Below are positions 136 to 53,901 of a DNA stretch of 64,000 nucleotides, piece after piece. This stretch comes from Planctomycetota bacterium (GTDB lineage Bacteria; Planctomycetota; JAJSAM01; JAJVHW01): positions 2,437 through 66,436 of the forward strand of contig JAJFFG010000037.1 of assembly GCA_021776825.1 (NCBI GenBank), written 5' to 3'. The notes below the pieces were generated by a model. The model saw nothing but the letters and a program-made list of their open reading frames with translations. It had not been told where the DNA came from and made no database searches. The stretch's first letter is position 1; each line of letters opens with the position of its first letter. Made by a program: the position numbers and the translations under genes.

Positions 136-216
136 CGGTCGCTGTGTCGGCGACGCGCGTGTCGTGATCAGCCGCCGCTGGCGCGCGTTGGTTCGCGGAC
201 GTCGATCGCCCAACCG

Positions 217-13610: not shown

Positions 13611-13660
13611 CGACGCTCGGGGCGCGTCGCGCGTCAGGCGTCGCGCCTGACGCTTCGCAG
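13611..13660 (+). terminator. GC-rich hairpins immediately after the stop of the GH42-like gene (candidate intrinsic terminator, no U-tract)
   Basis: gcgacgc-tcggg-gcgcgtcgc followed by tcaggcg-tcg-cgcctga (7-bp stems). Confidence 0.3.
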
Positions 13661-14115
13661 GGAACGCGATGTCTGCGTCACCGATCCTCCACGAGGCTAG
13701 GCCTCGCGTCGTCGCGGTTCCTTGACCTCACGCCCCCTGCTCGGTCAGGGACCCCGTGGGCAATTCGGGGGAACGTGGGCACGGCGGACACGAGCGCCCG
13801 ATGGAGCGGTGTCGCCGCTCTGCGCAACGCCTGCCCCGCGACCCGCCCCGAGCGTCGCGCTCCGCGTGACGAGTCAGGCGTCAGGCGTCGCGCCTGACGC
13901 TTCGCAGGGAACGCGATGTCTGCGTCGTCCCTCCTCCGCGAGGCTGGGCCTCGCGTCGTCGCGGTTCCTTGACCTCACGCCTCCTGCTTGGTCAGGGACC
14001 TCGTTGGCGATTCACGCGGGGGAAGATACGGCGGTGACGACTGCCCGATGAGCACGTGCCGCCGCAGTGCGCAAGGCCTGCCGCGCGTCCCGCCCCGACG
14101 GGCGCTCGCGTGGGC
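13631..14115. repeat. Tandem direct duplication, 2 x ~247 bp, ~85% identical, each copy starting with the hairpin tcaggcgtcgcgcctga
   Basis: Copy 1 begins 13631 (gcgtcaggcgtcgcgcctgacgcttcgcagggaacgcgatgtctgcgtc...) and copy 2 begins 13878 with the same string. Similarity extends through ...ccttgacctcacgcc.cctgct.ggtcagggacc... to ...gcccgatg...gcgcaa.gcctgcc.cg....ccgccccga. Confidence 0.85.
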
Positions 14116-14325
14116 AAGCGCGGCCGGAGAGACCGGTGAGGTCGCCGGCGGCGCTCTGGTCACACGTCACTTGATCGTGCGCGAGGGGAGTCCAGCTCGG
14201 CACGTCTCAGCCGTCGAGCCCCCAACGCGAAAGCCCCGCTTCCGACGCGCGGTGCGTGTCGGGAGCGGGGCTGTGACGATCGGTTGGAGGTCGGGATCAG
14301 GTGGCGATCAGATGGCCGGAGCGAC

Positions 14326-26125: not shown

Positions 26126-26223
26126 GCCGGGGCGAACCAGGCTCGACGAGTGCGGTTCCCCCTTCCGACTGGTGGGAGACGCCGACTACAGTGGCGGCGG
26201 TCCGTAGCGGGAGGGTCAGCGAC

Positions 26224-26988
26224 ATGTTCAAGCGTCTCGGCAACCTCATCCGAGGCTTCTTCGCGCTCTTCGTGGGAGACCTCGAACGGCAGAACCCCGA
26301 GGCGCTCCTCGAGGTGGAGAAGGAGAACCTTCGGACCCAGATCGCGAAGTACAACCGCGGTCTCGCCGCCCACGCGGCGCTCTGCGAGCGGCTGATCGGT
26401 CAGGTGAAGAGGCAGGAGAAGGAGCACACGCAGCTCAAGGCCAAGATCACGGCCCACCTGCGTGCCGGCAACCAGGACGCCGCCGGTCAGTACGCGCTGC
26501 GCTTCCAGGAAGTCACGCGCGACCTCACCGAGAACCGCGCTCAGCTCGACGACGCAGAGAAGACCTACAAGGAACTGACCCGCGCTCGCGACACCGCGGT
26601 CGAAGCCGCGCGCGCCAAGCTCCAGTCGCTGAAGCAGTCGATCAGCGACATGAAGGTCAAGCAGGCCACTGCCGAACTGAATGAGATGGCCTCCGGCATG
26701 ATCTCCGAGATCGGGGGCGCCGGCGACACGCTCAACCGTCTAGAGGAGATGGTCAACGAGGAGCGGGATCGCGCCGCGGGCCGCGCCCGGGTCGCGAGCG
26801 ACGCCCTCGAGATGAAGGAGATCAACCTCCAGGAGGTGGAGCGGGACGCGATGGCGCAGATGGCGCTCGCGGACTTCGCCGCCGCCGAGGGCATCTCGCT
26901 GGGCGCCGACGACGCCGCTCCGGTTGCCGACGAGCCGGCGGCCGAGGACGGTGGCAAGTCGATGGGCCCCGTCGCCGGGACCGAGTAG
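26224..26988 (+). CDS. pspA: PspA/IM30 (Vipp1/ESCRT-III-superfamily) protein
   Basis: MFKRLGNLIRGFFALFVGDLER... coiled-coil protein with PspA-like heptad pattern and acidic C-terminus. Confidence 0.8.
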   Translation: MFKRLGNLIRGFFALFVGDLERQNPEALLEVEKENLRTQIAKYNRGLAAHAALCERLIGQVKRQEKEHTQLKAKITAHLRAGNQDAAGQYALRFQEVTRDLTENRAQLDDAEKTYKELTRARDTAVEAARAKLQSLKQSISDMKVKQATAELNEMASGMISEIGGAGDTLNRLEEMVNEERDRAAGRARVASDALEMKEINLQEVERDAMAQMALADFAAAEGISLGADDAAPVADEPAAEDGGKSMGPVAGTE

Positions 26989-26997
26989 CGCGAGATC

Positions 26998-28707
26998 GTG
27001 AACGAGGCGGACGCCCCGTCGTCCACGTCGTCCACCGGGTCCAGCGGCTCCTCCGCGGCGCCGCGGCTGCCCGCGTGGGCCGCCGAGCTCTCGTCGCTCT
27101 ACGAGAGTGACGCGGCCAGCCAGTTCGTCCTGCACGGGAACGTGCACGATCGCGTCTTGCTGCCGCTCTCCGACGGCCCGGCGCTGGGCGGGATCGTCGA
27201 CTTCCTGCTCCGTGCGTTGATGCCGCGCTTCGACGTGATCCTCACGTACGACCTCGGGAACGGCATCCGGCTCGAGAAGGGCGGCGAGATCTTCGCCCAG
27301 TGGCCGAGCGGCGGGAAGGGGACGCTGCCGAAGCAGCCCCGCCCGGCGGTCGAGACGCTGACGCACTACCTGCGCTATGTCGCGAACCTACACGCGCTCG
27401 GACAGAAGAGGCTCCAGGTGGGCATCGTGGTCCGGGATGCGAGTCTCGTCTGCCCGCGGACGCATGGCGCCACGAGCCACGACCAGGCCGCGACGGCGTT
27501 GCTGCTGCGTGACTGGTCGTCCGACTCGGCCTTCGCCGACATGCCTCTCGCGACGTTCCTGCTCGCCGAGAACCTGAATGACCTCCATCCGATCGTGGCG
27601 GCCAACGGCCGCGCCGCGACGCTCGAGGTGCCGCTGCCCGCGGCGAGCGAACTGGCGGACGGCCTCGGCCTGCTCGCCCCGGGGTTCCCGCGCGCTCTCG
27701 TCAAGTACGCCGACGGTCTCGACGATCTCGCCGCGCAATTGGTCGGCGCGTCGCTGGGCGCCGTCGAGTCGCTCCTCCACATGCACGAGCATCGCGGCGA
27801 GTCGCTCGACGACGGGGACCTCGCGGAACTGAAGAAGGCGCTCGTCGAGAAGGACACCGGAGGGCTCATCGAGTTCGTCGAGTCCACGCGGACGCTCGAC
27901 GACTTCCGCGGCCAGGATCACGTTCGCGACTGGCTGCGAGACGACATCGCGCTGTGGCGCCAGGGCGAACTCGGCGCACTCCCGATGGGCTACCTGCTCT
28001 GCGGCCCCGTGGGCACGGGCAAGACGTTCCTCGTCAAGTGCCTGGCAGGAGAGGCGGGCGTGCCGGTCGTGCGCATCCGCAACTTCCGCGACAAGTGGAT
28101 CGGCAGCACGGAAGGCAACCTCGAGACGATCTTCCGGCTTCTGCACGCCCTCGGCCGCTGCTTCGTGTTCGTGGACGAGGCCGACCAAGCGCTCGGCCGC
28201 CGCGGACAGTCGAGCGGCGACTCGGGGCTCTCGGGTCGCATCTACTCGATGATCGCGCAGGAGATGAGCAACCCGGAGAACCGGGGGCGCATCGTCTGGG
28301 TCCTCGCGTCGAGCCGACCGGATCTGATCGAGGTCGATCTGAAGCGTCCCGGTCGCGTCGACGTCCGCATCCCACTGTTCCCGACGACCGACCCGGCGAC
28401 GGCCGCCGATCTCCTGTCCGCGCTGTGTCGTCGCCAACACGTCGATGTCAGCGCCGCGGACCTGGAGCCGCTGCATGCCGTGCTCCCCGATCTGCTGACC
28501 CCGGGTGCCGCCGAGGCCCTCGCGGTCAAGACGTACCGCGCGATGCGCACCCGTGGACTGGCGCCGATCGACGCGCTGCGTGAGTGTCTCGACGGCTACC
28601 AGAGCCCGGTCCCCGAGGCTGTGTTGGAAGCCCAGATCCGGCTCGCGCTGGCCGAGGCAAGTGACCTCGATCTCGTTCCGAAGGCGATCCGCGAGCGGTT
28701 CGCGTAG
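26998..28707 (+). CDS. Classical-clade AAA+ ATPase with ~300-aa N-terminal domain of unknown function, co-operonic with pspA
   Basis: GTG start 9 bp after the pspA stop. Walker A LLCGPVGTGKTFLV, Walker B FVFVDEADQ, second-region-of-homology SRPDLIEVDLKRPGRVDVRIPL. Confidence 0.8.
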   Translation: MNEADAPSSTSSTGSSGSSAAPRLPAWAAELSSLYESDAASQFVLHGNVHDRVLLPLSDGPALGGIVDFLLRALMPRFDVILTYDLGNGIRLEKGGEIFAQWPSGGKGTLPKQPRPAVETLTHYLRYVANLHALGQKRLQVGIVVRDASLVCPRTHGATSHDQAATALLLRDWSSDSAFADMPLATFLLAENLNDLHPIVAANGRAATLEVPLPAASELADGLGLLAPGFPRALVKYADGLDDLAAQLVGASLGAVESLLHMHEHRGESLDDGDLAELKKALVEKDTGGLIEFVESTRTLDDFRGQDHVRDWLRDDIALWRQGELGALPMGYLLCGPVGTGKTFLVKCLAGEAGVPVVRIRNFRDKWIGSTEGNLETIFRLLHALGRCFVFVDEADQALGRRGQSSGDSGLSGRIYSMIAQEMSNPENRGRIVWVLASSRPDLIEVDLKRPGRVDVRIPLFPTTDPATAADLLSALCRRQHVDVSAADLEPLHAVLPDLLTPGAAEALAVKTYRAMRTRGLAPIDALRECLDGYQSPVPEAVLEAQIRLALAEASDLDLVPKAIRERFA

Positions 28708-28729
28708 GCCGGGTTGCGCCCCGCCCGTT

Positions 28730-29260
28730 GCGGTGGCTCGGTGATGTCGCGTGGGTGGCGCTCGGCGTGCGATGGCGGTCGTCCGGACGGCCATCGGTCG
28801 ACGGCGCACGTCTCCTCGGGACCCTCCGGGACGACGGCTGCGACGGATCTCGCCCGGAGCCGTCCGACCCCCCGGCGTCGTTCGCTGACCGCCATCCACC
28901 CGCCTGGTCCGAGCACCGCGTGTCGGCGGGGCGGACCAGGGGGCCCGTCCCTACGGCGCCGTAGCAACAGCGATCGCGTGGGGCTGGCGGCGGCGAGATC
29001 GGTCCGGAGCCCCACCCGGGGCGGGGCGGTTGCGCGTCAGCGCAAGCGCCATGACGCGGGGAATGAGGCCACGCAGGGGTGCGGCCGACGGGGTGGCACT
29101 CGCGTGAGAGCCCTCGCACCCGCGGAGCCGACCAGAAAGATGGGAGGCGCGGCGATTGCCGCACGCCCCGATCTACGTCACCAACCAATCGCTCTGCAAT
29201 CGACGTGCCCCCCCCCCCGGCGGGGCGAATCAGGAGATCCGCCCGTACGCGGCCTTGGGG
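28730..29260. repeat. Composite palindromic repeat cluster (REP/MITE-like family), upstream flank of the flotillin block
   Basis: Contains ggcggggcggaccagggggcccgtccctacggcgccgtag, ~250 bp ~85-90% identical to 38700-38960 (…ggttgcgcgtcagcgcaagcgcc.tgacgcgggg.atgaggccacgca.gg.tgcg.ccgacgggg…ctcg.gtgagag.…gcagccgcggagccgaccag.aa..atgggaggcgcggcgattgc…), and ggcggggcgaatcaggagatccgcccgtacg. Confidence 0.85.
29208..29218. repeat. Homopolymeric C11 tract in intergenic DNA 87 bp upstream of the alpha/beta hydrolase start
   Basis: gtgccccccccccccggcgggg, counted directly. Confidence 0.9.
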
Positions 29261-29304
29261 CAGGCGACACGAGCGACGTGTCCACACGCTAGCCTCCATC
29301 CCTG

Positions 29305-30021
29305 ATGACCGAGGCCCTCGTCCCCATCCGCGACGCCACGCTCTGGACTCGCGTCCACGGCTCCGGCCCGCCGCTCGTCCTCCTCCACGGTGGCCCCGGC
29401 GCGAACGACTATCTCGACCCGGTCGCCGCCATGCTCGACGACCTTGTCACGGTTCATCGCTACGAGCAGCGCGGTTGCGGACGTTCGACCGCCGGCGATC
29501 ACAACGACGTCGCCACGAACGTTGCCGACCTCGAGGCGCTCCGCGAACACTGGGGACATGACCGGTGGATCGTGATGGGGCACTCTTGGGGCGCCGCTCT
29601 CGGTCTGGCCTACGCCCTCGATCACCCGGACCGCGTCGTGGGCCTCGGCTATCTCGCCGGCATCGGCATCGACCGCGCGTGGCGCCCCGCGTTCGAGGAG
29701 GCGTGTCGGACCCGGCGCGACCTCCCGACCGATCCGCCGACCGTGCTCGATCGAGAGCTCAACCGCGTCGTCCAGGCGGATTGGACCCGCCGCTGTGAGG
29801 ACCCGGAACTGATCGGTCGCGTCGAGGCGCTCGACGTCCCAGCCGTGCTCGTCCACGGCACCGCCGACCTGCGACCGAGCATCTCGGCCCGCCGTCTCGC
29901 TGAACTTCTGCCGCGGGCGACGTTTGTCTCACTCCCCGATGCCGACCACGTTCTCTGGCTCTCGCATCCCGACGCGACGTGCTCCGTCCTGCGTGAGATC
30001 GTCGGCCTGTTCGCGCGCTGA
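29305..30021 (+). CDS. Alpha/beta hydrolase (proline iminopeptidase-like)
   Basis: HGGPG oxyanion motif and GHSWG nucleophile elbow. 238 aa. Confidence 0.75.
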   Translation: MTEALVPIRDATLWTRVHGSGPPLVLLHGGPGANDYLDPVAAMLDDLVTVHRYEQRGCGRSTAGDHNDVATNVADLEALREHWGHDRWIVMGHSWGAALGLAYALDHPDRVVGLGYLAGIGIDRAWRPAFEEACRTRRDLPTDPPTVLDRELNRVVQADWTRRCEDPELIGRVEALDVPAVLVHGTADLRPSISARRLAELLPRATFVSLPDADHVLWLSHPDATCSVLREIVGLFAR

Positions 30022-30274
30022 GGGCGCCTGCGAGATCGTCCGAACTCGGCGAACCACAACGGCTTCCGGCGGTTGGACTTCGCAGGGACGACGATCGCAC
30101 GGCACAGGGCTGCGTGGCAGCGACGTCCACTGAGGTTGGATCGAGGCGCGTTGGGACGGGCCACGATCGCGACACGGTCGTGCGCGCCATCGAGAGCTCG
30201 CAGATCCGGCCGCGATCCGGAGGTGGGAGTCGCGGTAGCATCCGCACCCGCACCCGAAGTCCGGGCGCCGAGGG

Positions 30275-30997
30275 ATGAGGGTGATGCAAGGCTTCCTGGA
30301 GTCGATCGTGGCGTTCCCGACGGTGGTCTTCACCGTTCTGATGGGGATCGCGCTGCTCTTCTGGGCTGTGTCGATGCTCGGCGGGATCGATCTCGACGGC
30401 TTCGACGTCGATCTGGACGCCGACATCGACCTCGATGGGGATGCCGATGGCGGCGCGGCGCACACCGGACTCTTGGATACGCTCGGCCTAGCCGGCGTCC
30501 CCATCAGCATCGCGGCGACGGCGCTCGTGTTCTTCGCGTGGGTCATCTCCTTCGTCGCCTCCAGTTGGCTCCTCCCCCTCGTCGGCGGCGGCGTGGTCGG
30601 CACACTCGCTACCGTGGGCATTGGCATCGGCTCGTTCCTGCTGGCCATCCCGCCGGCAGCGATCTGCATGCGCCCTCTGCGCGGCGCGTTCACGACGCAT
30701 CGCGCTGTCCGCAAGCGGACGCTCGTCGGGAGCATCTGCACGATCACCACTCAGCGCGTCACGGACACGTACGGCCAGGCCGAGATCCGCGACGGCGGCG
30801 CAGGCCTGCTGATGCAGGTGCGCTGCCGCGAGGGCGTCACGCTCTCGCGCGACGACACCGCCGTCGTCTGTGAGTACGACGCGGAAGAAGACATCTACGT
30901 CATCGCGCCAGCCGATCAGCTGAGTGCCGCCGACGTCGTGAACAGCGGACACGAGGCGACTTCCCGGGACTCGGGAAGCGCCCACAACGAGAGGTAG
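30275..30997 (+). CDS. YqiJ/NfeD-like inner-membrane protein (flotillin partner) with C-terminal OB-fold-like domain
   Basis: N-terminal TM helices with acidic DLDGFDVDLDADIDLDGDADG stretch, C-terminal soluble beta-rich domain. Ends 7 bp before the flotillin gene. Confidence 0.55.
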   Translation: MRVMQGFLESIVAFPTVVFTVLMGIALLFWAVSMLGGIDLDGFDVDLDADIDLDGDADGGAAHTGLLDTLGLAGVPISIAATALVFFAWVISFVASSWLLPLVGGGVVGTLATVGIGIGSFLLAIPPAAICMRPLRGAFTTHRAVRKRTLVGSICTITTQRVTDTYGQAEIRDGGAGLLMQVRCREGVTLSRDDTAVVCEYDAEEDIYVIAPADQLSAADVVNSGHEATSRDSGSAHNER

Positions 30998-31003
30998 ACG
31001 GTC

Positions 31004-32998
31004 ATGGAGACCCTCATCACGGTCGCGGTTTTCATCGGAGTCGCGTTCTTCGTCATCGTCGCGGGGCTGTTCTTCTTCTCGCGGATCTACCGCAAGGTGG
31101 ACCAGGGCAAGGCGCTGATCGTCAACACGACGGCAGCCGATCCGGACGTCACGTTCACGGGACGCCACGTGATCCCCGTCTTCCACCGCGCCGAGATCAT
31201 GGACATCTCGGTCAAGACGATCGAGCTCGACCGTCGCGGCAAGGAGGGCCTGATCTGCATGGACAACATCCGTGCGGACATCAAGGTCACGTTCTTCGTC
31301 CGTGTCAATAAGACCACCGACGACGTGCTCAAGGTCGCGCAGGCCATCGGCTGCAAGCGCGCCTCGGAGCAGAAGACGCTCGAGGACCTCTTCATCGCGA
31401 AGTTCTCGGAAGCGCTGAAGACCGTCGGCAAGCAACTCGACTTCGTCGACCTCTACACCAAGCGCGACGAGTTCCGCGATCAGATCATCCAGATCATCGG
31501 CCGCGACCTGAACGGCTACGTCCTCGAGGACGCGGCGATCGACTACCTCGAGCAGACTCCGCTGGAGATGCTCGACGGCGACAACATCCTCGACGCCGAG
31601 GGCATTCGGAAGATCACCGAGCTGACCGCGCGGGAGCACGTTCACACGAACCTGTTCCGCAACAACGAGGTCAAGCAGATCAAGAAGCAGGACGTCGAAC
31701 GCGCCGAGGCCGTGTTCCAGCTCGTGCGGCAGGAGGCCGACGCCAAGGCGAAGCAGGAGCGTGAGATCCGCACGGTGCAGGCCCGCGAGGCGGCCGAGAT
31801 CGCTCGCGTCGAGGCAGAAGAGCGCCTGAAGGCCGAGAGCGCGCGCATCAAGAGCGACGAGGACCTCGAGGTCCAGGAACAGAACAAGATGCGTCAGGTC
31901 GAGGTCGCCGAGAAGAACCGCGAGCGTGTGATCGGCATCGAGATCGAGCGCGTCCAGAGGGACCGCGATCTCGAGGCGATCTCTCGCGAGAAGGCGACGG
32001 AGCTCGAGCGCATCGCGAAGGAGAAGGCGCTGGAGATCGAGCGGAAGGCCATCCAGGAGGTCATCGCCGAGCGCGTCGCGGTCGAGAAGACCGTCGCGAT
32101 CGAGGAGGAGGCCATCAAGGAGCTGCGCGTCGTCGAGGAGGCGAGTCGCACGAAGCAGGCCACCGTCATCACGGCCGAGGCCGAGGCGCAGGAACTCCTG
32201 ATCAAGGACGTCAGGGCCGCCGAGGCGCAGGAGTCCGCCGCGAAGCACGAGGCGAGGAAGACGATCATCATGGCCGAGGCGTCGCTCGAGGCCGCGGACA
32301 AGGAAGCACAGGCGAAGATCCGACTGGCCGAGGGCATTCAGGCCCACGAGGCCGCGAGCGGGCTTGCTGCGGCGCGCGTGAAGGAGGCGGACGCCGTCGC
32401 CACGGAGAAGGCCGGCATGGCCGATGCCACGGTGCGTCGCGAGGTCGGCCTGGCCGATGCGGTCGCCATCAAGGAGAAGATGAACGCCGAGGCGTCGGGC
32501 CTCCACGAGAAGGCTGCCGCGATGAAGGAACTCGACGGTGTGGGCCGCGAGCACGAGGAGTTCCGCATCCAGCTCGAGAAGGAGAGGGACGTCCAGATCG
32601 CGGCAATCGACGCGCAGCGGCAGATCGCCGAGGCGCAGGCCCTCACGCTGGGCGAGGCGTTCAAGTCGGCTGACATCGACATCGTCGGTGGCGACGGCCA
32701 GTTCTTCGATCGCATCCTCGGCGCCGTCGGCAACAGCAAGGCGCTAGATGGCTTCGTCAACGGGAGCGACTCGACACGCGCGCTGGTCGGTGAGTACACC
32801 GACGGCACGCGGAGTCTGCCGGCCGACCTCCGCGACGTGCTGACCAACCCCTCGGTCTCGACCGAGGACGCCAAGAACGTCACGCTGACCGCACTGCTCA
32901 TGAAGCTCATGAGCGGTGCGGATGCGGACACGCGCTCGAAGCTCGCGAAGCTTGCCGAGAGTGCGCGCGACATGGGCCTGATGGACTCGAGCAAGTAG
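31004..32998 (+). CDS. Flotillin-like SPFH/band-7 protein (YqiK-like)
   Basis: N-terminal TM, SPFH domain, very long Ala/Glu-rich flotillin repeat region (EAxxEA heptads). 664 aa. Confidence 0.85.
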   Translation: METLITVAVFIGVAFFVIVAGLFFFSRIYRKVDQGKALIVNTTAADPDVTFTGRHVIPVFHRAEIMDISVKTIELDRRGKEGLICMDNIRADIKVTFFVRVNKTTDDVLKVAQAIGCKRASEQKTLEDLFIAKFSEALKTVGKQLDFVDLYTKRDEFRDQIIQIIGRDLNGYVLEDAAIDYLEQTPLEMLDGDNILDAEGIRKITELTAREHVHTNLFRNNEVKQIKKQDVERAEAVFQLVRQEADAKAKQEREIRTVQAREAAEIARVEAEERLKAESARIKSDEDLEVQEQNKMRQVEVAEKNRERVIGIEIERVQRDRDLEAISREKATELERIAKEKALEIERKAIQEVIAERVAVEKTVAIEEEAIKELRVVEEASRTKQATVITAEAEAQELLIKDVRAAEAQESAAKHEARKTIIMAEASLEAADKEAQAKIRLAEGIQAHEAASGLAAARVKEADAVATEKAGMADATVRREVGLADAVAIKEKMNAEASGLHEKAAAMKELDGVGREHEEFRIQLEKERDVQIAAIDAQRQIAEAQALTLGEAFKSADIDIVGGDGQFFDRILGAVGNSKALDGFVNGSDSTRALVGEYTDGTRSLPADLRDVLTNPSVSTEDAKNVTLTALLMKLMSGADADTRSKLAKLAESARDMGLMDSSK

Positions 32999-33026
32999 GC
33001 GCCGGGATCGACACGGAGAGATCGCG

Positions 33027-36000
33027 GTGAGCGACGCATCTGACGGCGACACGGGCGCCCCCTCGATCGAGCGGGGGACGTACGAGGTCATCCGCGAACG
33101 GCTTCTCGGCAGCGGCCGAGAGTTGTCGCAGAAGGCCGAGGCGCTGAACGCGAGTCGGCTCGAGATGTTCGGTGGAACGCAGCTCGCCGTCAGTGGCAGC
33201 GAGCGCCTGCGGACCGAGAACAACTGCGTTCCCCGCGACATCGTCGCGATCGGGAACCGACTGCTGTTCGGCTACAACGTCTTCATCGGACTCAAGCGCG
33301 AGACGCGCGTCGATGACGTGTTCTCGTTCCAGACCGCAACGGCGCAGAACGGGACGTACGAGTTCTCGCCGGTCGAGGACGACGGCACCCCGAACCCGTT
33401 CGCTGACGAGCGCTTCCGTCACGACTTCCGGGAGCTCTACGCGTACTACAGCCAGGCGCGACTGCTCACGTTGCGCAAGGTCGACGGGAAACTGCTTGCC
33501 GTGTTCCAGGTGGGCCGCAACGTCACCGACGTGAAGGGCTTCCGCTGGGCCCTCGGCGTCGACGGGTCGATCACGTACATCGACAACCAGGCCGACCGCG
33601 ATCACGGCTATCCGCCGACGCACGACTTCGAGTGGACGGAGACGTCGCGGGACGACCACGCCCTCGGCCTGCACCCGCACGTGTCCATTCTCGACGAGGT
33701 GTTCGTCGAGACCGTCGGGGGCGATCTCACGGTCAAGGTCGAGGACAACACCGCCGACGGCCTTGGCGTCTATCGCGAGTCAGTGGTCGACGAGAACCAA
33801 GGGCTCGACGACGCCTCGATTCACTACGCGAAACTCGGCAGCCTGATCCTGATCCGCTTGCTGCCGTTCCGCGAGGAGCAGTGGCGCTACCTCGTGTTCA
33901 ACACGCTGACGCAGCACGTCTCGCGCATCGACCACATCGGCCAGGCGTGCGTCCAGTTGCCCGAGGACCACGGGATCATCTTCCCGGGCGGCTACTACCT
34001 GCAGCGCGGTGAGACGAAGACCTTCGCGGCAGACATCCAGGGCATGCGGCTCGAGCGCACCGTCCGCTCGCCGAACGGCGAGGACGTGCTGTACGTCTTC
34101 TATCGCCAGGAGGACGGCGCGTACGTCCTGCTGCCCTACAACATGATCCGCAAGCAGGTCGACACACCGATCCGGTGTCACGGCTACTGCCTGTTCGAGG
34201 ACGGTCGCATGGTCGTCGTCCGGGCAGCCGGGAGCGAAGCGACGCGGGTTCATCCCATCCAGGTGTGGCAGACGCCGTTCACGGGCGACGTCTTCGCGGA
34301 CGCGCGGGCCACGGGGAACAGCTTCCTCGAGCGGGTCGGCAATGCGGATCTCGTCCGCGGGATCTCCGACTGCCTCTCCGTGCATCGCATGGTGGAGGAG
34401 CAGAAGCCGACGCTCGCGATGTACGAGGAGCTCATCGCCGAGACCTCGCGCGTCTTGGATCAGTACCACTGGCTTGGCGCGGACGACGTCGACAACCTTC
34501 TCGCGACGTTGCGCCAGGTGCGCGAGACGGCGGAGCTCGTCATCGACGAGTTCGAGAAAGTGCAGGCGCTGCGCGCCGAGGCCTCGCGCGTGTTGGCCGA
34601 GGCCGACGAGCGCGTGAAGAAACTGGTCACGCGGCTGCGGTCGGCGGGCTGGAAGGCGGTCGAGAAGTTCGTCGATGCGATGACCGAACTGCGTCGCGAA
34701 CGCGGACGGCTCATCTCGCTGCGCGACGTGCGCTACATCGACGTCGACCGAGTGACAGCGCTCGAGCAGTCCGTCATCGATCGCTTCGACGCCGTGAGTG
34801 CGAAGTCGGTGGAGTTCCTCGTCGGGGCCTCGGCGCTCGAGCCATACCTCGTGCGTGTCGCCGACATCGAGGCCGCCGTCGAGACCGTCGCCAAGGTCAC
34901 CGAGACCGCGCCGCTGACCGAGTCGTTGAACGAGACGAGTGGCGCTCTCAACATGCTCACGGAGGTTGTTGGCGGTCTGGCGATCGACGACGCCACCGTT
35001 CGCACCTCGATCCTCGAGGCGATCAGCGAGGTGATGGCGTCGCTCAACCGAGCGCGCGCGCTGCTCCAGGCGCGTCGCCGTCAGTTGCTTCGCCAGGAGG
35101 GCGTTGCCGAGTTCGCCGCGCAGTTCTCGCTGCTTGCGCAGAGCGTCTCCGGGGCGCTCGCGATGGCGGACACGCCGGAGCGTTGCGACGACCAGCTCTC
35201 GCGCCTCATGGTGCAGCTCGAGGAGATGGAGGGGCGGTTCAGCGAGTTCGACGAGTTTCTCGAACAGCTGACGACGAAGCGCGAGGAGATCTACGAGGCG
35301 CTGGAGGGCAAGAAGCAGTCCCTCCTCGATCAGCAGCAGCGTCGTGCACATCATCTGATGCAGGCCGTCGAGCGCATCCTGGCCGGCGTGGCGCGCCGCG
35401 CGTCCGGGCTCGGCGAACAGGACGATCTGAACGCGTACTTCGCATCCGACGCGATGGTGATGAAGGTCCGCGAGATGGCGGGCCGTCTGCGTGACCTGGA
35501 CGACTCGGTGCGCGCCGACGAGGTCGAGTCACGACTGAAGTCCGCGCGCGAGGACGCCGTACGCGCGCTGCGCGATCGTCAGGATCTCTTCGAGGACGGC
35601 GCGTCCGTCATCCGCCTGGGCAAGCACCGGTTCAGCGTGAACACGCAAGCGCTCGACCTGACGCTCGTGCCGCACGACGACGGCTTGGCGCTGCACCTGA
35701 CCGGTACGGACTTCCGCGAGCCGATCGTCGACGAGACGTTCGAAGCGACCCGCGAGTACTGGGCGCAGGAACTCGTCTCCGAGACGCCGGCTGTCTATCG
35801 GTCCGAGTACCTCGCGTACTCGATCCTCGCGGCTGCCGAGACCGAGAGCGACGGGCTGTCGTTGACGCGTCTGACCGAGGCCGTCGTCGACGACGCCGCG
35901 TTGCTCGCCTTGGTCCGCGAACACGCGGCCTCCCGATACGACGAGGGGTACGAACGCGGCGTTCACGATCACGACGCTGCGGCGATCCTGTCGCGCCTTG

Positions 36001-38402
36001 TCGGGCTCTATGGGACTGCCGGGCTTCTGCGCTTCGCCCCGCACGCCCGCGCCGCGGCGTCGGTGGCATGGGCGTTCTCGCCCGCCTCGGATCGCCGCGA
36101 CAGCTTGGCGAGCCGCGCGTCGAGCCTCGCTCGGTTGCGCACGGCATTCGCGCACAGCGAGGCGATCACGTCCGTCGAGTCCGATCTCTGCCGCTTCGTT
36201 GCCGAGTTCCACTCGGAGCACGGGCTGGAACTGAACGACGGGACGGCTCGCGTGGCGGGGCGCTATCTGTTCGAGGAGCTCGCGCGGGGCACCGATCGGT
36301 TCGTCGCGAGTGGCGAGGCCGCGGCTCTGCGCGACGCCTTCCTCGCGCGCCTCGACACGCTCGGCGTGCGTCATGCGTTGACCGAGGACCTCGACGGGCT
36401 CGACGGTCGACTCGCGGAGCGCCATGCCTTGCTGACGGCGTGGATGGAGACGTGGCTGGAGGCGCAGCCGGATGCCGAGGCCTCACGCCCGGTCCTTCCG
36501 GAGTCGGTCGGATTGGTGCTCACCGACGGTGTCCTTGCTCGCGACGTGCAGAGCTCGTTGAGCACCGCCGTCGTCGAGGGCGTCCTCGGCCAGCACGCGC
36601 GGATCGACGATCGACGTCTCCCGCTGCGGCTCGACGAGTTCCTCGGGCGACTCTCCCGTTTCCTGCACGAGCGTGTGCCCGCGTACCGCGCGTATCAGCG
36701 TGTTCGGGCAGAGCTGCTCGAGCGCGAGCGCGAGCGACTGCGGATCTCGGAGTACCTGCCGCGCGTGCTGAGCTCGTTCGTGCGCAACCGCCTGATCGAC
36801 GAGGTCTACCTTCCGCTGATCGGTGACAACCTGGCCAAGCAGCTCGGAGCGAGAGGCGAGGGCAAGCGCACCGATCTGATGGGGTTGTTGCTCCTCATCT
36901 CACCGCCGGGCTACGGCAAGACGACCTTGATGGAGTACGTCGCCAATCGACTCGGTCTGGTCTTCATGAAGATCAACGGTCCGGCGCTCGGCCACGGCGT
37001 CACGTCGCTCGATCCGGCCGAGGCGCCGAGTGCGACGGCGCGGCAAGAGGTCCAGAAGATCAACCTCGCGTTCGAGATGGGCAACAACGTGCTGCTCTAC
37101 CTCGACGACATCCAGCACACGCACCCGGAACTGCTCCAGAAGTTCATCTCGCTCTGCGACGCGACACGCAAGGTCGAGGGTGTCTGGCGTGGGCGCACGC
37201 AGACGTACGACCTGCGCGGGAAGAAGTTCGTCGTCTGCATGGCGGGCAATCCCTACACGGAGTCGGGCGAGCGCTTCCAGGTGCCCGACATGCTGGCCAA
37301 CCGCGCCGACGTCTACAACCTGGGCGACGTGCTCTCCGGCAAGGACGACCTCTTCGCGCTGAGCTACATCGAGAACGCGCTCACGTCGAACCCGGTGCTC
37401 GCGCAGATCACGACGCACGATCATCGCGACGTCCACGTGCTGGTGCGGATGGCGCGTGGCGAAGAGGTCCCCGCGTCCGAGCTTCAGCACGACTACCCGC
37501 AGGTGGAGCGCGAGGAGATCCTCGCGGTGCTGCGGAAGGTCCTGCGTGTGCAGGAGGTGCTCCTCGCGGTCAATCGCGAGTACATCCGCTCCGCGTCGAT
37601 GGACGACGACTTCCGCACCGAGCCACCATTCGGGCTGCAGGGCAGCTACCGCAACATGAACAAGCTCGCCGAGAAGATCGTCGCCGTGATGAACGACGCC
37701 GAGCTCGAGGCGTTGCTCGTGGATCACTACGCCGGCGAATCGCAGACGCTCACGAGCGGTGCGGAGCAGAACCTCCTGAAACTGGCGGAGTTGCGTGGCG
37801 CGCTGACCGAAGAGCAGGCAGCGCGTTGGGACGAGATCCGCGCGGCGTTCCAGCGGCGTCAGCGGATGGGCGGAGACGACGACGATCCGGTTCTGCGGGT
37901 GACCTCGCAACTGGGACATCTCGGCGATCGCGTCGAGTCGGTGGGGGAGTCGATCCGCTCGGCGGCCGAGGCGGCGACGGAACGTCAACGCGGGTGGCAG
38001 GATGCCTTGGTCGCGCGTCGAGAGCAGACCGCTGCCGAGACCGCATTCGAGTCGGCGCTGGCCGCCGCGCAGGCCGACGATGGCGACGCGGAGCGCACGG
38101 GCGAGGCCGTCGGTCGTGCGCTCACGCCGGTGCTGGAACGGATCGCGGAGCTGGCGGCTGCGCGCCCCGAGCCGGCTCTGGACCTCGACGGTGTGGACGA
38201 CGCCGACGGCTTCGCGGCTCTGGCGACGCGCCAGGCCGAGGTCATCGAGGTCGGCCTGCTACCCGTCCTTCGTTCGCTGAACCAGAACCTCCGCGTCTCA
38301 CGCACGGTATGGGATCGACTGAACTCCGTCAGCCAGGCTCTCGCCGCCCTGGCCGGGACCGAACCGCCGGGACCGTTGCCGGAGGCGGACGACGGGACGT
38401 AG
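33027..38402 (+). CDS. Giant (1791 aa) protein with AAA_5/MoxR-like ATPase domain, co-operonic with flotillin
   Basis: GTG start 28 bp after the flotillin stop with GGAGAG SD. Walker A ISPPGYGKTTLMEY, Walker B LLYLDDIQ, FVVCMAGNPY sensor region at residues ~1240-1400. Long helical N- and C-terminal regions. No other domain recognised. Confidence 0.7.
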   Translation: MSDASDGDTGAPSIERGTYEVIRERLLGSGRELSQKAEALNASRLEMFGGTQLAVSGSERLRTENNCVPRDIVAIGNRLLFGYNVFIGLKRETRVDDVFSFQTATAQNGTYEFSPVEDDGTPNPFADERFRHDFRELYAYYSQARLLTLRKVDGKLLAVFQVGRNVTDVKGFRWALGVDGSITYIDNQADRDHGYPPTHDFEWTETSRDDHALGLHPHVSILDEVFVETVGGDLTVKVEDNTADGLGVYRESVVDENQGLDDASIHYAKLGSLILIRLLPFREEQWRYLVFNTLTQHVSRIDHIGQACVQLPEDHGIIFPGGYYLQRGETKTFAADIQGMRLERTVRSPNGEDVLYVFYRQEDGAYVLLPYNMIRKQVDTPIRCHGYCLFEDGRMVVVRAAGSEATRVHPIQVWQTPFTGDVFADARATGNSFLERVGNADLVRGISDCLSVHRMVEEQKPTLAMYEELIAETSRVLDQYHWLGADDVDNLLATLRQVRETAELVIDEFEKVQALRAEASRVLAEADERVKKLVTRLRSAGWKAVEKFVDAMTELRRERGRLISLRDVRYIDVDRVTALEQSVIDRFDAVSAKSVEFLVGASALEPYLVRVADIEAAVETVAKVTETAPLTESLNETSGALNMLTEVVGGLAIDDATVRTSILEAISEVMASLNRARALLQARRRQLLRQEGVAEFAAQFSLLAQSVSGALAMADTPERCDDQLSRLMVQLEEMEGRFSEFDEFLEQLTTKREEIYEALEGKKQSLLDQQQRRAHHLMQAVERILAGVARRASGLGEQDDLNAYFASDAMVMKVREMAGRLRDLDDSVRADEVESRLKSAREDAVRALRDRQDLFEDGASVIRLGKHRFSVNTQALDLTLVPHDDGLALHLTGTDFREPIVDETFEATREYWAQELVSETPAVYRSEYLAYSILAAAETESDGLSLTRLTEAVVDDAALLALVREHAASRYDEGYERGVHDHDAAAILSRLVGLYGTAGLLRFAPHARAAASVAWAFSPASDRRDSLASRASSLARLRTAFAHSEAITSVESDLCRFVAEFHSEHGLELNDGTARVAGRYLFEELARGTDRFVASGEAAALRDAFLARLDTLGVRHALTEDLDGLDGRLAERHALLTAWMETWLEAQPDAEASRPVLPESVGLVLTDGVLARDVQSSLSTAVVEGVLGQHARIDDRRLPLRLDEFLGRLSRFLHERVPAYRAYQRVRAELLERERERLRISEYLPRVLSSFVRNRLIDEVYLPLIGDNLAKQLGARGEGKRTDLMGLLLLISPPGYGKTTLMEYVANRLGLVFMKINGPALGHGVTSLDPAEAPSATARQEVQKINLAFEMGNNVLLYLDDIQHTHPELLQKFISLCDATRKVEGVWRGRTQTYDLRGKKFVVCMAGNPYTESGERFQVPDMLANRADVYNLGDVLSGKDDLFALSYIENALTSNPVLAQITTHDHRDVHVLVRMARGEEVPASELQHDYPQVEREEILAVLRKVLRVQEVLLAVNREYIRSASMDDDFRTEPPFGLQGSYRNMNKLAEKIVAVMNDAELEALLVDHYAGESQTLTSGAEQNLLKLAELRGALTEEQAARWDEIRAAFQRRQRMGGDDDDPVLRVTSQLGHLGDRVESVGESIRSAAEAATERQRGWQDALVARREQTAAETAFESALAAAQADDGDAERTGEAVGRALTPVLERIAELAAARPEPALDLDGVDDADGFAALATRQAEVIEVGLLPVLRSLNQNLRVSRTVWDRLNSVSQALAALAGTEPPGPLPEADDGT

Positions 38403-38404
38403 GG

Positions 38405-39412
38405 GTGAGGGCGGTTGACCGGGCGGCGACGCAAGGGATAGCGACGCCCTCGACCGAGAGCCGCCCGCATTCCACGGGCCGCCGCCCAGCGCCATCGGAT
38501 CCGCGTCGTCCGCGCGACCCAAGCGGGCGGGGCGGATCAGGAGATCCGCCCGTACGACCCGATTGAGGTGGCGCGACCTGCGGATCGAATCCGGACATGG
38601 GGCGCGACGCGGACCGAGAACACGGTTCTCGACCGATGGCCGTCCGCATCACGAGGGTCGTTCGCCGAGCGCCATCGGACCCGCCTCGCGCGGACAACCC
38701 CAGCGGGCGGGGCGGACCAGGGGGTCCGCCCCTACGGCGCCGTTGACCCAGCGATCGCGTGGGGCTGGCGGAGGCGAGGTCGCCACGGATCCGCACCCGG
38801 GGCGCGGCGGTTGCGCGTCAGCGCAAGCGCCGTGACGCGGGAGATGAGGCCACGCAAGGCTGCGACCGACGGGGCGGCTCTCGTGTGAGAGCTGACGCAG
38901 CCGCGGAGCCGACCAGGAACATGGGAGGCGCGGCGATTGCGACATGCCCCCAACGAGCGTCCACGTTCGACTGGCGCCGCAATCGACGTGACCCCGGGGC
39001 GCTGCGGTTGCGCGTCAGCGCAAGCGCCGTGACGCGGGGCAACGAGGCCACGCAAGGCTGCGACCGAGGGGGTTGCGCTCTCGTGTGAGAGGTGACGCAG
39101 CCGCGGAGCCGACCAGGGACAATGAGGGCGGGGCGGACCAGGGGGTCCGCCCCTACGGCGCCGTTGACCCAGCGATCGCATGAGGTTGGCGGGGGCGAGG
39201 TCGAGCCGGATCCCCACCCGGGGCGCGCTGGTTGCGCTCGAGCGCAAGCAGCGTGACGCGGGGAATGTGTGCGCGGAGGTCCTCGACCGGCGCCGATGGC
39301 TCTCGCGAGACGTGTGACGAGACCGAGCACACACCAGACAGAAACACAGGGCGCGGCGATTGCCGCATCTCTCGACGCGCGCTCACCCGAGACGCGCCCT
39401 GCAATCGCCGTG
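38405..39412. repeat. Largest cluster of the composite palindromic repeat family (units A, middle motif, B, then two to three ~300-bp B-type copies), downstream flank of the flotillin block
   Basis: 38523 gcgggcggggcggatcaggagatccgcccgtacgacccgattgaggtggcgcg. 38700 and 39125 gggcggggcggaccagggggtccgcccctacggcgccgttgacccagcgatcgc.tg.gg.tggcgg. ttgcgcgtcagcgcaagcgccgtgacgcgggg at 38810 and 39005, degenerate at 39230. Confidence 0.85.
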
Positions 39413-39416
39413 ACCG

Positions 39417-39779
39417 CTACGCGATTTCGAGCAACTCCATGTCGAACACCAGGTCCTGCTTCGGCGGGATGCCGGCCGGGTGCCCCTGTTCGCCGTACGC
39501 CAGCAGATACGGGATCGTCGCGCTCCACCGATCGCCGACGCACATCTCCGCGACGATCAGATCCCAGCCGCGGATGACCATCCCGGCGCCGAGCGTGAAG
39601 GCGAAGGGCGACCCGCGATCTCGCGAACTGTCGAAGGAGCGCCCGTCGGGGTAGGTCCCGACGTAGTGCATGCTGACCCGGTCACTGGCGAGCGGTTTCT
39701 GACCCTGACCGCTCGTGATGATCTCGATCTGGATCGCCGGAACCCCGTCCATCCCCGCTTCGATCTGCATGTCCGCCAT
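39417..39779 (-). CDS. FKBP-type peptidyl-prolyl cis-trans isomerase
   Basis: DRVSMHYVGTYPDGRSFDSSRDRGSPFAFTLGAGMVIRGWDLIVAEMCVGDRWSATIPYLLAYGEQGHPAGIPPKQDLVFDMELLEI is the FKBP12 signature. Confidence 0.9.
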   Translation of the reverse strand: MADMQIEAGMDGVPAIQIEIITSGQGQKPLASDRVSMHYVGTYPDGRSFDSSRDRGSPFAFTLGAGMVIRGWDLIVAEMCVGDRWSATIPYLLAYGEQGHPAGIPPKQDLVFDMELLEIA

Positions 39780-50789: not shown

Positions 50790-53570
50790 GTGCGTGGTCT
50801 CCGCCTGCTGCCGTTCGCTCTCGTCGCCGCGTGTGCTGCGCCGACGGCCGGAACGGCGCCGCGGCCGACTCGCGTGGACCTGGATCCCGCCGCTCCGCTC
50901 GACGACCGCCTGCCGGCGCTTCCCGAGAAGACCGACCACCCGTACGAGCCGTGGCTCTTCGACGTCCGCCACTACGACATCGACGTCGCCCTCGATTTCG
51001 AACGGGAGAGCGTCGACGGGCGGGTCACGATCACGTTCCGCACGCTGCACGATGCGCCGCCGATCCTGCCGCTCGACATCGTCGGGCTCGAGATCCAGAG
51101 CGTCACCGACGGCGATGGCGTCGAGGTTGCGTACCGCGTCGACGGCGATCGGCTCCTCCTGGGGCTCGGCGCTGGCTTCCTGATCGGCGAGGAGCGCACG
51201 GTCGAGATTGCGTACCGCGGCACGCCGCGTCGCGGCCTGTACTTCAATCGAGTGCCCGCGGGAGACCCGGCCGCTCGGCTCCAGGCGTTCACGCAGGGAG
51301 AGTGTGAGGACACCCGCCACTGGCTGCCCTGCCACGACTTCCCCGATGACCGGGCGACCTCGACCACGCGCGTGACGGTGCCGACCGGGATGCACGTCGC
51401 CGCGGCCGGTGAACTCGAGGGGGTCACCAAGGCGTCGCGCGGACGAAGCACGTGGACGTATCGCATGGACGTGCCACACGTCAGCTACCTGACGACGATC
51501 GTGGCCGGCGGCTACGAGGTGGTCCGGGAAGACGGTCCGGTCCCGCTCGAGTTCGTTGCCGACGAGCGGGACGCCGAGCACGCGGCGTACTCGCTGCGGA
51601 AGACCGACGAGATCCTGCGCTTCTTCGGCGAGTACACCGGGCGGTCGTATCCCTACGCGCGCTACGCCCAGTGTTGCGTCCGCGACTTCATGTTCGGCGG
51701 CATGGAGAACATCACTGCGACCACCCTCACCGACGGGACGGTGCATCCGCCGCACTGGGAGCCCGCTCGGACGAGCCACGGGCTCGTGGCGCACGAGGCC
51801 GCGCATCAGTGGTTCGGCGATCTCATCACGTGTCGCGACTGGTCACACATCTGGCTGAACGAGGGCTTCGCGACCTACTTCACGCAGCTCTGGCGCGAGC
51901 ACGACGAGGGCGAGGCCGCGTTCCTCGCCGCCATGCGCGGGACGATGAACGGCGCGACCCGAGCCTGCGAGCGCGCCCGCCGCCCCGCGATCTCGAACCG
52001 CTACGCCGACCCGTTCGACCTGTTCTTCGACGGTCACGCCTACGGCGGCGGCGCCGCACGCCTGCACATGCTGCGAATCGAGCTCGGCGACGAGACCTTC
52101 CGGAAGGGCGTTCGCCTCTACGTGGAGCGACATGCCGGGACCGTGGCCACCACGCGCGAGCTCGAGCGCGCGATGTCCGATGCGGCGGGGCAGGACCTGC
52201 GCTGGTACTTCGATCAGTGGCTCCGCACCCCGGGGCGTCCCAAACTGAAGGTGCGCTGGACGTGGGACGACGCCGCCCGCGCTCTGCGCGTGACCGTGAA
52301 GCAGACGCACGACGAGAAGGCGTTCCCGAAGACCTATCGCCTCTCGTTGGACATCGCCTGCGACCTTGCCCGCGGCCGCAGCGAGACGGTCCGCCTCGCG
52401 GTCTCGAAGCGCGAGGAGACCTTCGAGATCGCGCTGCCGAACCAGCCGCGTCTGGTGCGGGTCGACCCGCGCCGCGGGCTGATTGCCCGGATCGATCTCG
52501 AGCGGACTCCGGAGGCGTGGACGGCGCTCGCTCGCACTGATCCAAGCCCCGGGGGGCGCCTGGACGCCGTCGAGGCCCTCGGTGCGATCGCGCGCGACCG
52601 CAAGCGGGACGCGAAGGTGCGGACGGCGGCTCGCGAGACCCTCCTGGCCGCGATGGACGATCCGTTCCATCAGGTGCGCACAACTGCGCTCCGTCAGGTG
52701 AAGCGTTCGGGCGGCGTCGACGTGACGGCGGAACTGCTCTCGCTCTACGAGCGCGACGAGGACCTCCGCGTGCGGCTGGCGGTGCTCGGCGCGCTGCGCG
52801 ATCGCGACGGGGATGACGCCGCTCGTGCGGCCCTCCGCGCTGCGGCGACTTCGGATCACGACCTCGTGCGGGCAGAGGCCCTGCCGGGCGTCGGGCGGCT
52901 GGCGGGTCCCGGTGCGTTCGAACTGCTCGTCGCGGCCGTCGACTGGCCCGGCTGGCACTCACGTGCGCGCGGGGCAGCGCTGGGCGCCCTCGCTGACCTC
53001 GGCGACGAGCGGGCGTTTCCCCTCCTCGTCCGGTATGCCGCCGTAGAGGCCGACCCGCGAAGTCGATCCGCCGCGATCCGAGCCCTCGGCCGGATGGGGG
53101 CGGAGCGTCCCGAGTACACCGATGCCGTGCTGGCGCACCTGTACGACGAGCGCAGCGGGATCCGCAAGGCGGCCATCGACGCCGCTGGCGCGCTGGCCGA
53201 TCCGGGAGCGCTGGCTCCGCTCGTCGCGGCGTTCCACCGGGAGACGTGGAAGCCGAACCGCCGTGCGCTGCGCCGTGCGATCGAGGCCTGTCGTCGCACC
53301 GCGGTCGATCGGGGCGAGTGGGTCACGATCGAGGCCGCCCGCGGCGGACGCCTCCGTGAGGAGCATGCGGCTCTCCGCGACGGCTCGACGACGGACGCAG
53401 CGGCCCGCCGGAAGCGGCTTCGGGAGCTGAAGAAGGAGCTCGACGCCCTCGGCGTGCGGCCGTTGCCCGCCCCGAAGAAGGCCCCGAAGAAGGCCCCGAA
53501 GAAGGCACCGAAGAAGGCACCGAAGAAGGCCGGGGCCCCCAAGAAGGGCCCGAAGAACGCTCCGAAGTAG
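50790..53570 (+). CDS. pepN: Aminopeptidase N (M1 family) with C-terminal HEAT-like repeats and Lys/Ala/Pro-rich KKAP-repeat tail
   Basis: GAMEN-type FGGMENI and HEAAHQWFGD...E zincin motifs. Signal/lipoprotein-like N-terminus LVAACAAP. C-terminus KKAPKKAPKKAPKKAPKKAGAPKKGPKNAPK. Confidence 0.85.
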   Translation: MRGLRLLPFALVAACAAPTAGTAPRPTRVDLDPAAPLDDRLPALPEKTDHPYEPWLFDVRHYDIDVALDFERESVDGRVTITFRTLHDAPPILPLDIVGLEIQSVTDGDGVEVAYRVDGDRLLLGLGAGFLIGEERTVEIAYRGTPRRGLYFNRVPAGDPAARLQAFTQGECEDTRHWLPCHDFPDDRATSTTRVTVPTGMHVAAAGELEGVTKASRGRSTWTYRMDVPHVSYLTTIVAGGYEVVREDGPVPLEFVADERDAEHAAYSLRKTDEILRFFGEYTGRSYPYARYAQCCVRDFMFGGMENITATTLTDGTVHPPHWEPARTSHGLVAHEAAHQWFGDLITCRDWSHIWLNEGFATYFTQLWREHDEGEAAFLAAMRGTMNGATRACERARRPAISNRYADPFDLFFDGHAYGGGAARLHMLRIELGDETFRKGVRLYVERHAGTVATTRELERAMSDAAGQDLRWYFDQWLRTPGRPKLKVRWTWDDAARALRVTVKQTHDEKAFPKTYRLSLDIACDLARGRSETVRLAVSKREETFEIALPNQPRLVRVDPRRGLIARIDLERTPEAWTALARTDPSPGGRLDAVEALGAIARDRKRDAKVRTAARETLLAAMDDPFHQVRTTALRQVKRSGGVDVTAELLSLYERDEDLRVRLAVLGALRDRDGDDAARAALRAAATSDHDLVRAEALPGVGRLAGPGAFELLVAAVDWPGWHSRARGAALGALADLGDERAFPLLVRYAAVEADPRSRSAAIRALGRMGAERPEYTDAVLAHLYDERSGIRKAAIDAAGALADPGALAPLVAAFHRETWKPNRRALRRAIEACRRTAVDRGEWVTIEAARGGRLREEHAALRDGSTTDAAARRKRLRELKKELDALGVRPLPAPKKAPKKAPKKAPKKAPKKAGAPKKGPKNAPK
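53470..53567 (+). repeat. 12-bp tandem repeat (ccgaagaaggcc x5 plus degenerate copies) encoding the KKAP tail of pepN
   Basis: Read directly at 53472-53567. Confidence 0.85.
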
Positions 53571-53901
53571 TTCACCGGCTCGTCCGAGGGCGAGATGCCC
53601 CCGAATTCGGCGTGTCCACACACGGCTCTCGCGCGCGGCAGCGCCTCCGATCTCGTGGTGCGGGACCCGTGTGACGCAGGCGGAGCACAGGCTCGACTCA
53701 CCGCTCCGCGCACGGTTCGCGTTCTCGTTGCGAGAAGTTCGAGGCACAGGCTCCATCTCAGAGTGAGAAACGCGGCCCCAGGCTCGCGTCCTGTGCGGGT
53801 CCGACCCGATCTCTCTAGTGCAGCCGGCGCCCCGGGGTGTCTGTCGAGGCCGCAAGCGCGGTCGGGACCCCCGGGAGCGACCGGTTGAGGAGGGCCTGTC
53901 A

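Follow-up and report, generated by a model that had tools for sequence, protein, structure and literature searches.

What are the long, GC-rich palindromic repeats that recur between the genes of this Planctomycetota-like genome fragment, and how did they come to be there? The window – the whole stretch of 64 kb analysed here, with a GC content of 69% – had been described in an initial annotation as carrying a composite, REP- or MITE-like family at four loci. The answer reached here is that they are an ordinary kind of bacterial repeat, a new and lineage-specific family of the REP/BIME type: the clusters are probably GTAG-tagged REPs of the RAYT (Y1/HUH) class, set in mosaic BIME-like arrays and known so far from a 64-kb window without a RAYT. 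Other readings – relics spread by local duplication, structured RNAs, MITEs, transcription terminators – are weighed below, where the evidence bears on them.

One repeat family at four non-coding loci

Repeat finding, blastn self-comparison and nhmmer all recovered the four loci proposed initially, as one family: R0 (1-143, inverted and truncated where the window begins), R1 (963-1455), R2 (28702-29267) and R3 (38423-39415), which span 39 kb and occur in either orientation. Elsewhere in the 64 kb, profiles made from these copies found no further member. The 28-nt core, GGGGCGRAYCAGGRGNNCCGYCCNTACG, matches eight times (seven on the + strand, one on the - strand), against 0.00 matches expected from 100 shuffles. 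The window starts inside a copy, so a repeat of this kind may be where the contig broke. Contig ends in repeats (Logan, SRR15505515) were also considered as a sign of more copies, and this was rejected because the contigs of that sample are short throughout, the repeat-free nuo operon being fragmented too (1454-nt contig).

The copies are more diverged than the 85-90% identity over hundreds of base pairs with which they had been credited; the actual figures are 72-81% over 290-374 nt. R1 and R3 align at 78% over 323 nt (1133-1455 versus 38448-38763), R2 and R3 at 80.5% over 374 nt (38622-38995 on the R3 side), and the most diverged tail, T3, is 72-75% identical to T1 and T2 over about 290 nt. 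Identities of 88-94% are found only among copies of the tail core, over 88-143 nt.

All copies occupy non-coding gaps, 3′ of at least one gene, and here the proposed intergenic placement stands: GC content in the repeat regions is flat, at about 0.73 at each codon position, whereas the flanking genes have a GC3 of 0.8-0.9. The flat profile rules out coding potential for the repeats and marks the long ORFs that cross them as spurious. The arrays should accordingly not be called as genes, as many such spurious ORFs of 100-250 aa run across them.

Modular architecture of the arrays

Alignment of the copies resolves three kinds of module (Table 1). One is the hairpin core itself. Unit X, of about 120-155 nt, consists of an M motif, a spacer and a hairpin of type A or type B. 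Tail T, of about 250 nt, lies 3′ of the B hairpin and is complete in three copies, T1, T2 and T3; its central part of about 130-140 nt, the T-core, also occurs alone as Tp and at R0, which brings the T-cores to five.

Table 1. Modules of the repeat family in the 64-kb window
Module	Position	Strand	Evidence and remarks
R0 tail-core module (T-core), inverted, cut by window start	1-143	-	upstream of ORF 217-831(+)
R1 inverted X unit (hairpin + M)	963-1089	-	nhmmer E = 2.7e-23
R1 X unit type A (M + hairpin)	1109-1261	+	nhmmer E = 4.8e-34; core 1215-1242, GTAC head on - strand
R1 X unit type B	1293-1452	+	nhmmer E = 1.2e-34; core 1400-1427, then palindrome CTACGGCGCCGTAG
R2 inverted X unit, hairpin eroded	28702-28817	-	nhmmer E = 4.5e-17
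R2 X unit type B	28826-28979	+	nhmmer E = 5e-30; core 28928-28955
R2 tail T2	28956-29212	+	alignment with R3 tail; T-core ~29005-29154, terminal hairpin H4 29142-29212
R2 lone type-A hairpin	29216-29256	+	core match and nhmmer; core 29222-29249
R3 X unit type A	38426-38581	+	nhmmer E = 7.5e-31; core 38529-38556
R3 X unit type B	38605-38760	+	nhmmer E = 1e-36; core 38709-38736
R3 tail T1	38737-38993	+	T-core ~38786-38935, hairpin H4 38927-38993
R3 lone T-core, Tp	38993-39125	+	88% identity over 143 nt to 38796-38935; no B hairpin
R3 B hairpin and most diverged tail T3	39126-39415	+	core 39130-39157; H4 39349-39415

This map changes the order of modules at two loci. R1 had been read as A-M-M-B over 1030-1446 and proves to be an inverted hairpin-plus-M unit followed by M+A and M+B; the inverted hairpin, whose core at 975-1002 reads GTAGGGGCGGAGCCCCCGCTCCGCCC on the + strand, had been overlooked. 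R3 had been read as A-M-B with a tail, B with a tail and a degenerate tail; the order is M′+A, M+B, a complete tail, Tp without a B hairpin, and finally B with a diverged tail, this last block (39126-39415) being 75% identical to 38705-38993 over 293 nt (blastn). A degenerate inverted REP at 38398-38430 (GTAGGGGTGAGGGCGG...) is suggestive by eye and was dropped after nhmmer failed to detect it.

The X units stand in two arrangements. In R1 and R3, an X(A) is followed by an X(B) in the same orientation, at a period of 180-185 nt from one core start to the next; seven of the eight cores lie on the + strand. In R2 the inverted and the direct unit together make a head-to-head long hairpin of about 250 nt, which is REPIN-like; as DNA, 28700-28960 folds at -87.1 kcal/mol (z = -2.64, a value matched by none of 200 shuffles), with its left REP eroded. 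The left part of R1, again an inverted plus a direct X, is likewise a long hairpin, and nhmmer detects no inverted unit in R3.

The modules meet at short GC-rich microhomologies, among them ACCCCGGGGCGC, ...GTGACCCC/GGGGCGC... (the stroke marks the junction) and GGCG(C/G)GGCG...; it is at such sequences that Tp is joined to the end of T1 and to the next hairpin.

Compensatory change in the hairpin core

Read on the opposite strand, the core consists of a GTAG or GTAC head, a GC stem of 9-10 bp and a loop of 4 nt. The head is GTAG in five of the eight cores (those at 975, 1400, 28928, 38709 and 39130) and GTAC in three (1215, 29222 and 38529). On the + strand, type B reads GGGGCGGACC-AGGG-GGTCCGCCCC-TACG and type A GGGCGGATC-AGGA-GATCCGCCC-GTACG, while in the inverted copy (975-1002) the stem is GGGCGGAGC/GCTCCGCCC. 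Folded as DNA, the cores have energies between -14.9 and -15.7 kcal/mol, with z between -2.3 and -4.6.

There is moderate evidence, from these eight sequences, that compensatory change has preserved the core stem. At position 14-21, four copies have C-G, three have T-A and one (the inverted copy in R1) has G-C, and 91% of the cells in the hairpin alignment are paired, against 39-63% when the partners are slid. The notion that each unit is a near-perfect inverted repeat is borne out for A and B (stems of 9-10 bp, z = -3.1 to -4.6) and fails for M (z = -0.29), which was rejected as a conserved hairpin also because the copies do not share its pairing. Another candidate that was set aside is a second, GTAG-tagged palindrome 3′ of the B hairpin: CTACGGCGCCGTAG occurs in only two of the four B copies, and the palindromes further downstream are not alike.

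A structured tail

Stem-loops follow one another along tail T; the last, H4, has a stem of 13-14 bp (GGCGATTGC...GCAATCGNC) around a fast-diverging loop of about 36 nt. In the RNAalifold structure of the T-core, six compensatory pairs are seen where 1.9 are expected (1 of 500 shuffles); they fall in two helices, and T3 contributes four of the changes and T2 one. Alignment cells are paired in 89% of cases, compared with 32-51% when slid. From five sequences, this amounts to moderate evidence that the structure of the T-core is constrained; like that for the hairpin, it does not separate single-stranded DNA from RNA, or one strand from the other.

Could the T-core, or the whole array, act at the RNA level, as a structured 3′-UTR element or a small-RNA gene that selection maintains for its RNA structure, the REP hairpins being incidental? 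The compensatory changes in the two helices would fit, as would the RNA fold of 38700-38995 (z = -3.44 on the + strand, -2.20 on the - strand), the invariant G-U pair and the other G-U pairs on the + strand, and the position of all three complete loci 3′ of a + strand gene in the same orientation. Counts of G-U versus A-C cells (about 10 versus 4) were set aside as a guide to the strand of action, half of them coming from one invariant column. Hairpins of single-stranded DNA would, moreover, benefit from compensatory change just as much, and the statistics, from five copies, are thin. Rfam gives no match in the window at the gathering score and, in 38380-39440 at E <= 10, a single chance-level lncRNA match (E = 1.7); the arrays contain no sigma-70-like promoter and no + strand terminator-like site; and nothing related appears in the relatives or in the 704 kb of metagenome loci described below. 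We consider a primary function at the RNA level improbable.

Doubtful, if worth keeping in view, is the idea that the T-core is an element in its own right, either a small non-autonomous single-stranded DNA element that hitch-hikes on hairpins of the RAYT type or a multi-copy structured RNA of this lineage. It draws on the five copies, the two covarying helices and the occurrence with and without a REP hairpin, as well as on the closest pair: R0 is 90% identical to 38786-38908 over 124 nt and 94% over 88 nt (nhmmer E = 9e-39), in inverted orientation and at a distance of 38.7 kb.

The repeats and their neighbouring genes

The genes on either side of R1, and those on either side of R3, converge; those around R2 run in one direction. 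R1 separates ORF 217-831(+) from a convergent 610-aa gene (1437-3269, - strand), whose stop codon lies 10 nt after the type B hairpin. R2 follows an AAA-ATPase gene, the TAG stop of which (28705-28707) is also the TAG of the eroded GTAG head, and its type-A hairpin sits 49 nt upstream of the start codon of an alpha/beta-hydrolase gene at 29305. R3 takes up the 1014 nt that separate a DUF3686 gene (1791 aa) from a convergent FKBP gene, ending 2 nt short of the FKBP stop codon (39417-39419, - strand). The arrays account for the four largest REP-bearing gaps of the fragment, which matters for both annotation and assembly. That a REP insertion might have truncated the upstream proteins was considered and gave no signal, the C-terminal tails of DUF3686 homologues being variable.

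GC-rich hairpins just 3′ of the stop codons in R1, R2 and R3 invite the reading, raised at the outset, that they are intrinsic terminators or attenuators, in which case their resemblance would be convergent. However, across R1-R3 there is no site on the + strand, where seven of the eight hairpins lie, at which a hairpin precedes a T tract; several hairpins share each gap; and blocks of 300-370 nt at 78-80% identity indicate common descent, not convergence. We give the terminator reading next to no credence. The single, weak terminator-like site is on the - strand (39367-39352): inside T3, at 50 nt downstream of the stop codon of FKBP, a small hairpin with a T-rich tract may represent a co-opted terminator. 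The window contains no tRNAs.

R2 and R3 do bracket 29305-38402, so the observation that repeats flank a gene block is geometrically true. Since R0 and R1 hold related copies as well, the arrangement suggests two insertions of one family, not a pair of attachment sites. The wider block (26191-38402) encodes a PspA-like protein, the AAA ATPase, then, beyond R2, the hydrolase, proteins of 240 and 664 aa and the DUF3686/AAA protein (1791 aa), the last three forming a tight operon that three relatives (L007-L009) have kept. The 664-aa protein, initially labelled ‘flotillin’, has no Pfam match.

Gain in one lineage

The nearest named homologues of the NuoH protein, 64% identical, are from Planctomycetota; relatives that are closer, at 70-73%, are syntenic with the window, and one of their records is labelled Planctomycetota_PLA2. 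Neither the profiles nor a scan for GTAG hairpins found a copy of the family in 118 kb from relatives L005-L009. Three of these (L007-L009, found via their DUF3686 homologues) keep the operon of 237-aa, 665-aa and DUF3686 proteins, followed by a spacer of 84, 94 or 11 nt, compared with 1014 nt in the window. With three syntenic relatives that lack the family and have short spacers, the arrays are a gain in this lineage relative to its kin.

The same stems accompany RAYT genes elsewhere

The exact core was absent from the metagenome contigs of a first scan and from viral contig collections, and matched once only among genome contigs, in an unrelated CPR MAG. A distant blastn against the plasmid collection gave no match, and a literature text search for the core sequence returned nothing relevant. 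As an observation apart, GTAGGGGCGGACCTCCTGGTCCGCCCC is found at 5333-5360 of L002 (Patescibacteria MAG JBGSIU010000042.1, 37% GC, from a very different phylum), in frame within a DHFR-like ORF (5015-5578, - strand), where this GC-rich, REP-type hairpin encodes ...VGADLLVRPNSAAGG....

A relaxed pattern, GGGCGGANCNNNNGNTCCGCCCSTACG, which fixes the stem and head only, matched at least 120 metagenome contigs (L010-L129) with GC contents from 0.39 to 0.71. So wide a distribution is unusual for a single REP stem, and such recurrence may interest those who study the co-evolution of RAYTs and REPs. Among the matches listed, the dominant variant, GGGCGGACC-TGAA-GGTCCGCCCCTACG, occurs 58 times. The 704 kb of matched loci contain 203 GTAG-tagged perfect hairpins, with neighbours arranged head-to-head in 23 pairs, tail-to-tail in 17 and head-to-tail in 15.

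Clustering of all ORFs across these loci yielded a single family of transposases, in which four proteins match PF01797 and score 81.7-110.6 bits against the NCBIfam model NF047646, REP-associated tyrosine transposase (cutoff 80 bits). At locus L074, the RAYT gene is bracketed by groups of REPs that include GTAGGGGCGGATC-TTCA-GATCCGCCC, the A stem of the window; at L128, a RAYT gene is bracketed by GTAGGGGCGGACC-CATT-GGTCCGCCCC, the B stem, and an inverted partner. The hairpins at both loci have outward GTAG heads. Stems of the window type also adjoin NF047646-positive genes at L072 and L097, and doublets of about 110 nt with a conserved spacer occur at L072 and L123. A GTAG head on a short GC stem-loop, together with the same stems next to or around RAYT genes, bears out the designation of the family as REP-like.

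Only the hairpin is common to the window and the metagenome loci: the M and T modules were not found in the 704 kb. These two companion modules – X with its M, and T – were seen nowhere else and are lineage-specific. Within the 64-kb window itself, neither a transposase nor a RAYT came to light in Pfam scans of some 40 ORFs, in the L001 annotation or in tblastn with four RAYT queries, so the earlier remark that no transposase is associated holds for this stretch.

How the family may have spread

On the preferred reading, of REPs of the RAYT class, the hairpins and adjacent DNA would have been copied as single-stranded DNA by a RAYT encoded elsewhere in the genome, or lost since, and the family would then have expanded in this lineage. 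Alternatively, copying may have proceeded by template switching or recombination at the hairpins, giving rise to truncated and tandem modules, a route that the GC-rich microhomologies at the junctions would fit. At about 120 nt for X and 250 nt for T, the conserved units greatly exceed a REP in size, and something other than the hairpin may therefore drive copying. In E. coli, REPs near stop codons affect expression of the upstream gene. Copies here would persist in 3′ gaps, where those that are transcribed may secondarily stabilise mRNA 3′ ends.

A more passive history is also conceivable, in which hairpins derived from REPs, with no RAYT acting on them, were multiplied by local segmental duplication, replication slippage and gene conversion within some 40 kb, and would then not constitute a mobile family of the whole genome. 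The lack of a RAYT in the window, the tandem reiteration inside R3 (T1, Tp and T3), the microhomologies at module junctions, the 72-81% identity, which suggests old copies, and the confinement of all known copies to 39 kb would each agree with it – this last with the proviso that copies are known from the window alone. On the other side, different loci carry different combinations of modules, and the most similar pair of all (R0 and the T1-core, at 90-94%) is both distant and inverted, which is not the product of simple tandem slippage. We judge the passive history unlikely, though it keeps an appreciable chance.

That the repeats are classical MITEs – deletion derivatives of insertion sequences with a DDE transposase, moved by cut and paste – was part of the first description, and they do resemble such elements in being short, non-coding, multi-copy and intergenic, with some units in both orientations. 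Their ends tell against it: under all seven unit definitions, local alignment of the left end with the reverse-complemented right end scores 7-9, which does not exceed the 95th percentile of shuffles, and no target-site duplications flank the units beyond trivial GC strings of 3-7 nt. Nor does the window encode a DDE transposase. A MITE origin is thus very improbable.

Other repeats in the window

The window holds several repeats of other kinds. One, unrelated to the family and also in a convergent gap, is itself MITE-like: two tandem units of 247 nt with 81% identity occupy 13607-14100 (in the spacer 13611-14325), each bounded by inverted repeats of about 37 nt (13610-13646 and 13822-13858, 89% complementary). 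Two others touch genes. At 53469-53573, a 12-nt tandem repeat, GCCCCGAAGAAG, encodes the (APKK)n C-terminal tail of a peptidase M1/HEAT protein (50790-53570), and at 60505-60586 a 21-nt tandem repeat (GGTGAGAACACYGTGACGGAA, three to four copies) lies at the end of a NuoG-like gene and adjoins the NuoH start. Finally, an isolated GTAG-tagged hairpin with a different stem, GTAGCGCGGCAACGCCTTGCCGCG, lies at 15708-15731 in a DUF3179-like ORF and may be a chance match.

Comparison with known repeat systems

GTAG-type REPs are defined, in the text of PMC3733652 (Di Nocera 2013), by a GTAG head and a short GC stem-loop, the head being given as GT(A/G)G in PMC2817692 (Nunvar 2010); such stem-loops measure 20-40 bp. 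The same text of PMC3733652 describes a GTAG superfamily with stems of 6-13 bp, sub-families that differ by complementary changes and clusters that reiterate flanking DNA, and it reports head-to-tail orientation as under-represented in most genomes. The present family agrees with these accounts in its GTAG head, its GC stem of 9-10 bp and its short loop (PMC2817692 and the text of PMC3733652). It agrees further in its extragenic position between unidirectional or convergent genes, its clustering with reiteration of flanking DNA, its sub-families distinguished by complementary stem changes, and the presence of the same stems around RAYT genes at L074 and L128. It departs from the type in its GTAC heads (three of the eight cores, a variant absent from the list in the text of PMC3733652), its mostly head-to-tail cores, the very large conserved companion modules in which these cores sit, and a window without a RAYT. 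Moreover, GTAG-type REPs usually number more than 100 per genome, whereas the eight cores here were counted within 64 kb. No motif in common with the GTAG-23 blocks of Thermomicrobium roseum appears in the text or supplements of PMC3733652.

Like the BIMEs of E. coli, the arrays are mosaic and intergenic, and in both cases two kinds of hairpin – A and B in the window, Y and Z in E. coli – alternate with conserved linkers at a regular distance. Unlike BIMEs, in which REPs alternate in orientation and are separated by linkers of 10-40 nt, they have seven of eight cores in one orientation, a period of about 180 nt and an attached tail of 250 nt. They resemble REPINs – doublets copied as a unit, such as the R0 repeats of Pseudomonas in PMC2817692, not to be confused with our locus R0 – in that an inverted REP pair around a conserved spacer folds as a single long hairpin at 28702-28955 and in the left part of R1; the doublets of about 110 nt at L072 and L123 are comparable. 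The doublet here is, in contrast, about 250 nt long, its spacer is a long palindrome (M inverted plus M), and one arm is eroded in R2 and has probably been lost in R3. The family adds a GC-rich, Planctomycetota-like lineage to the probable hosts of REPs of the RAYT class, in an unusual packaging of head-to-tail arrays with long conserved companions.
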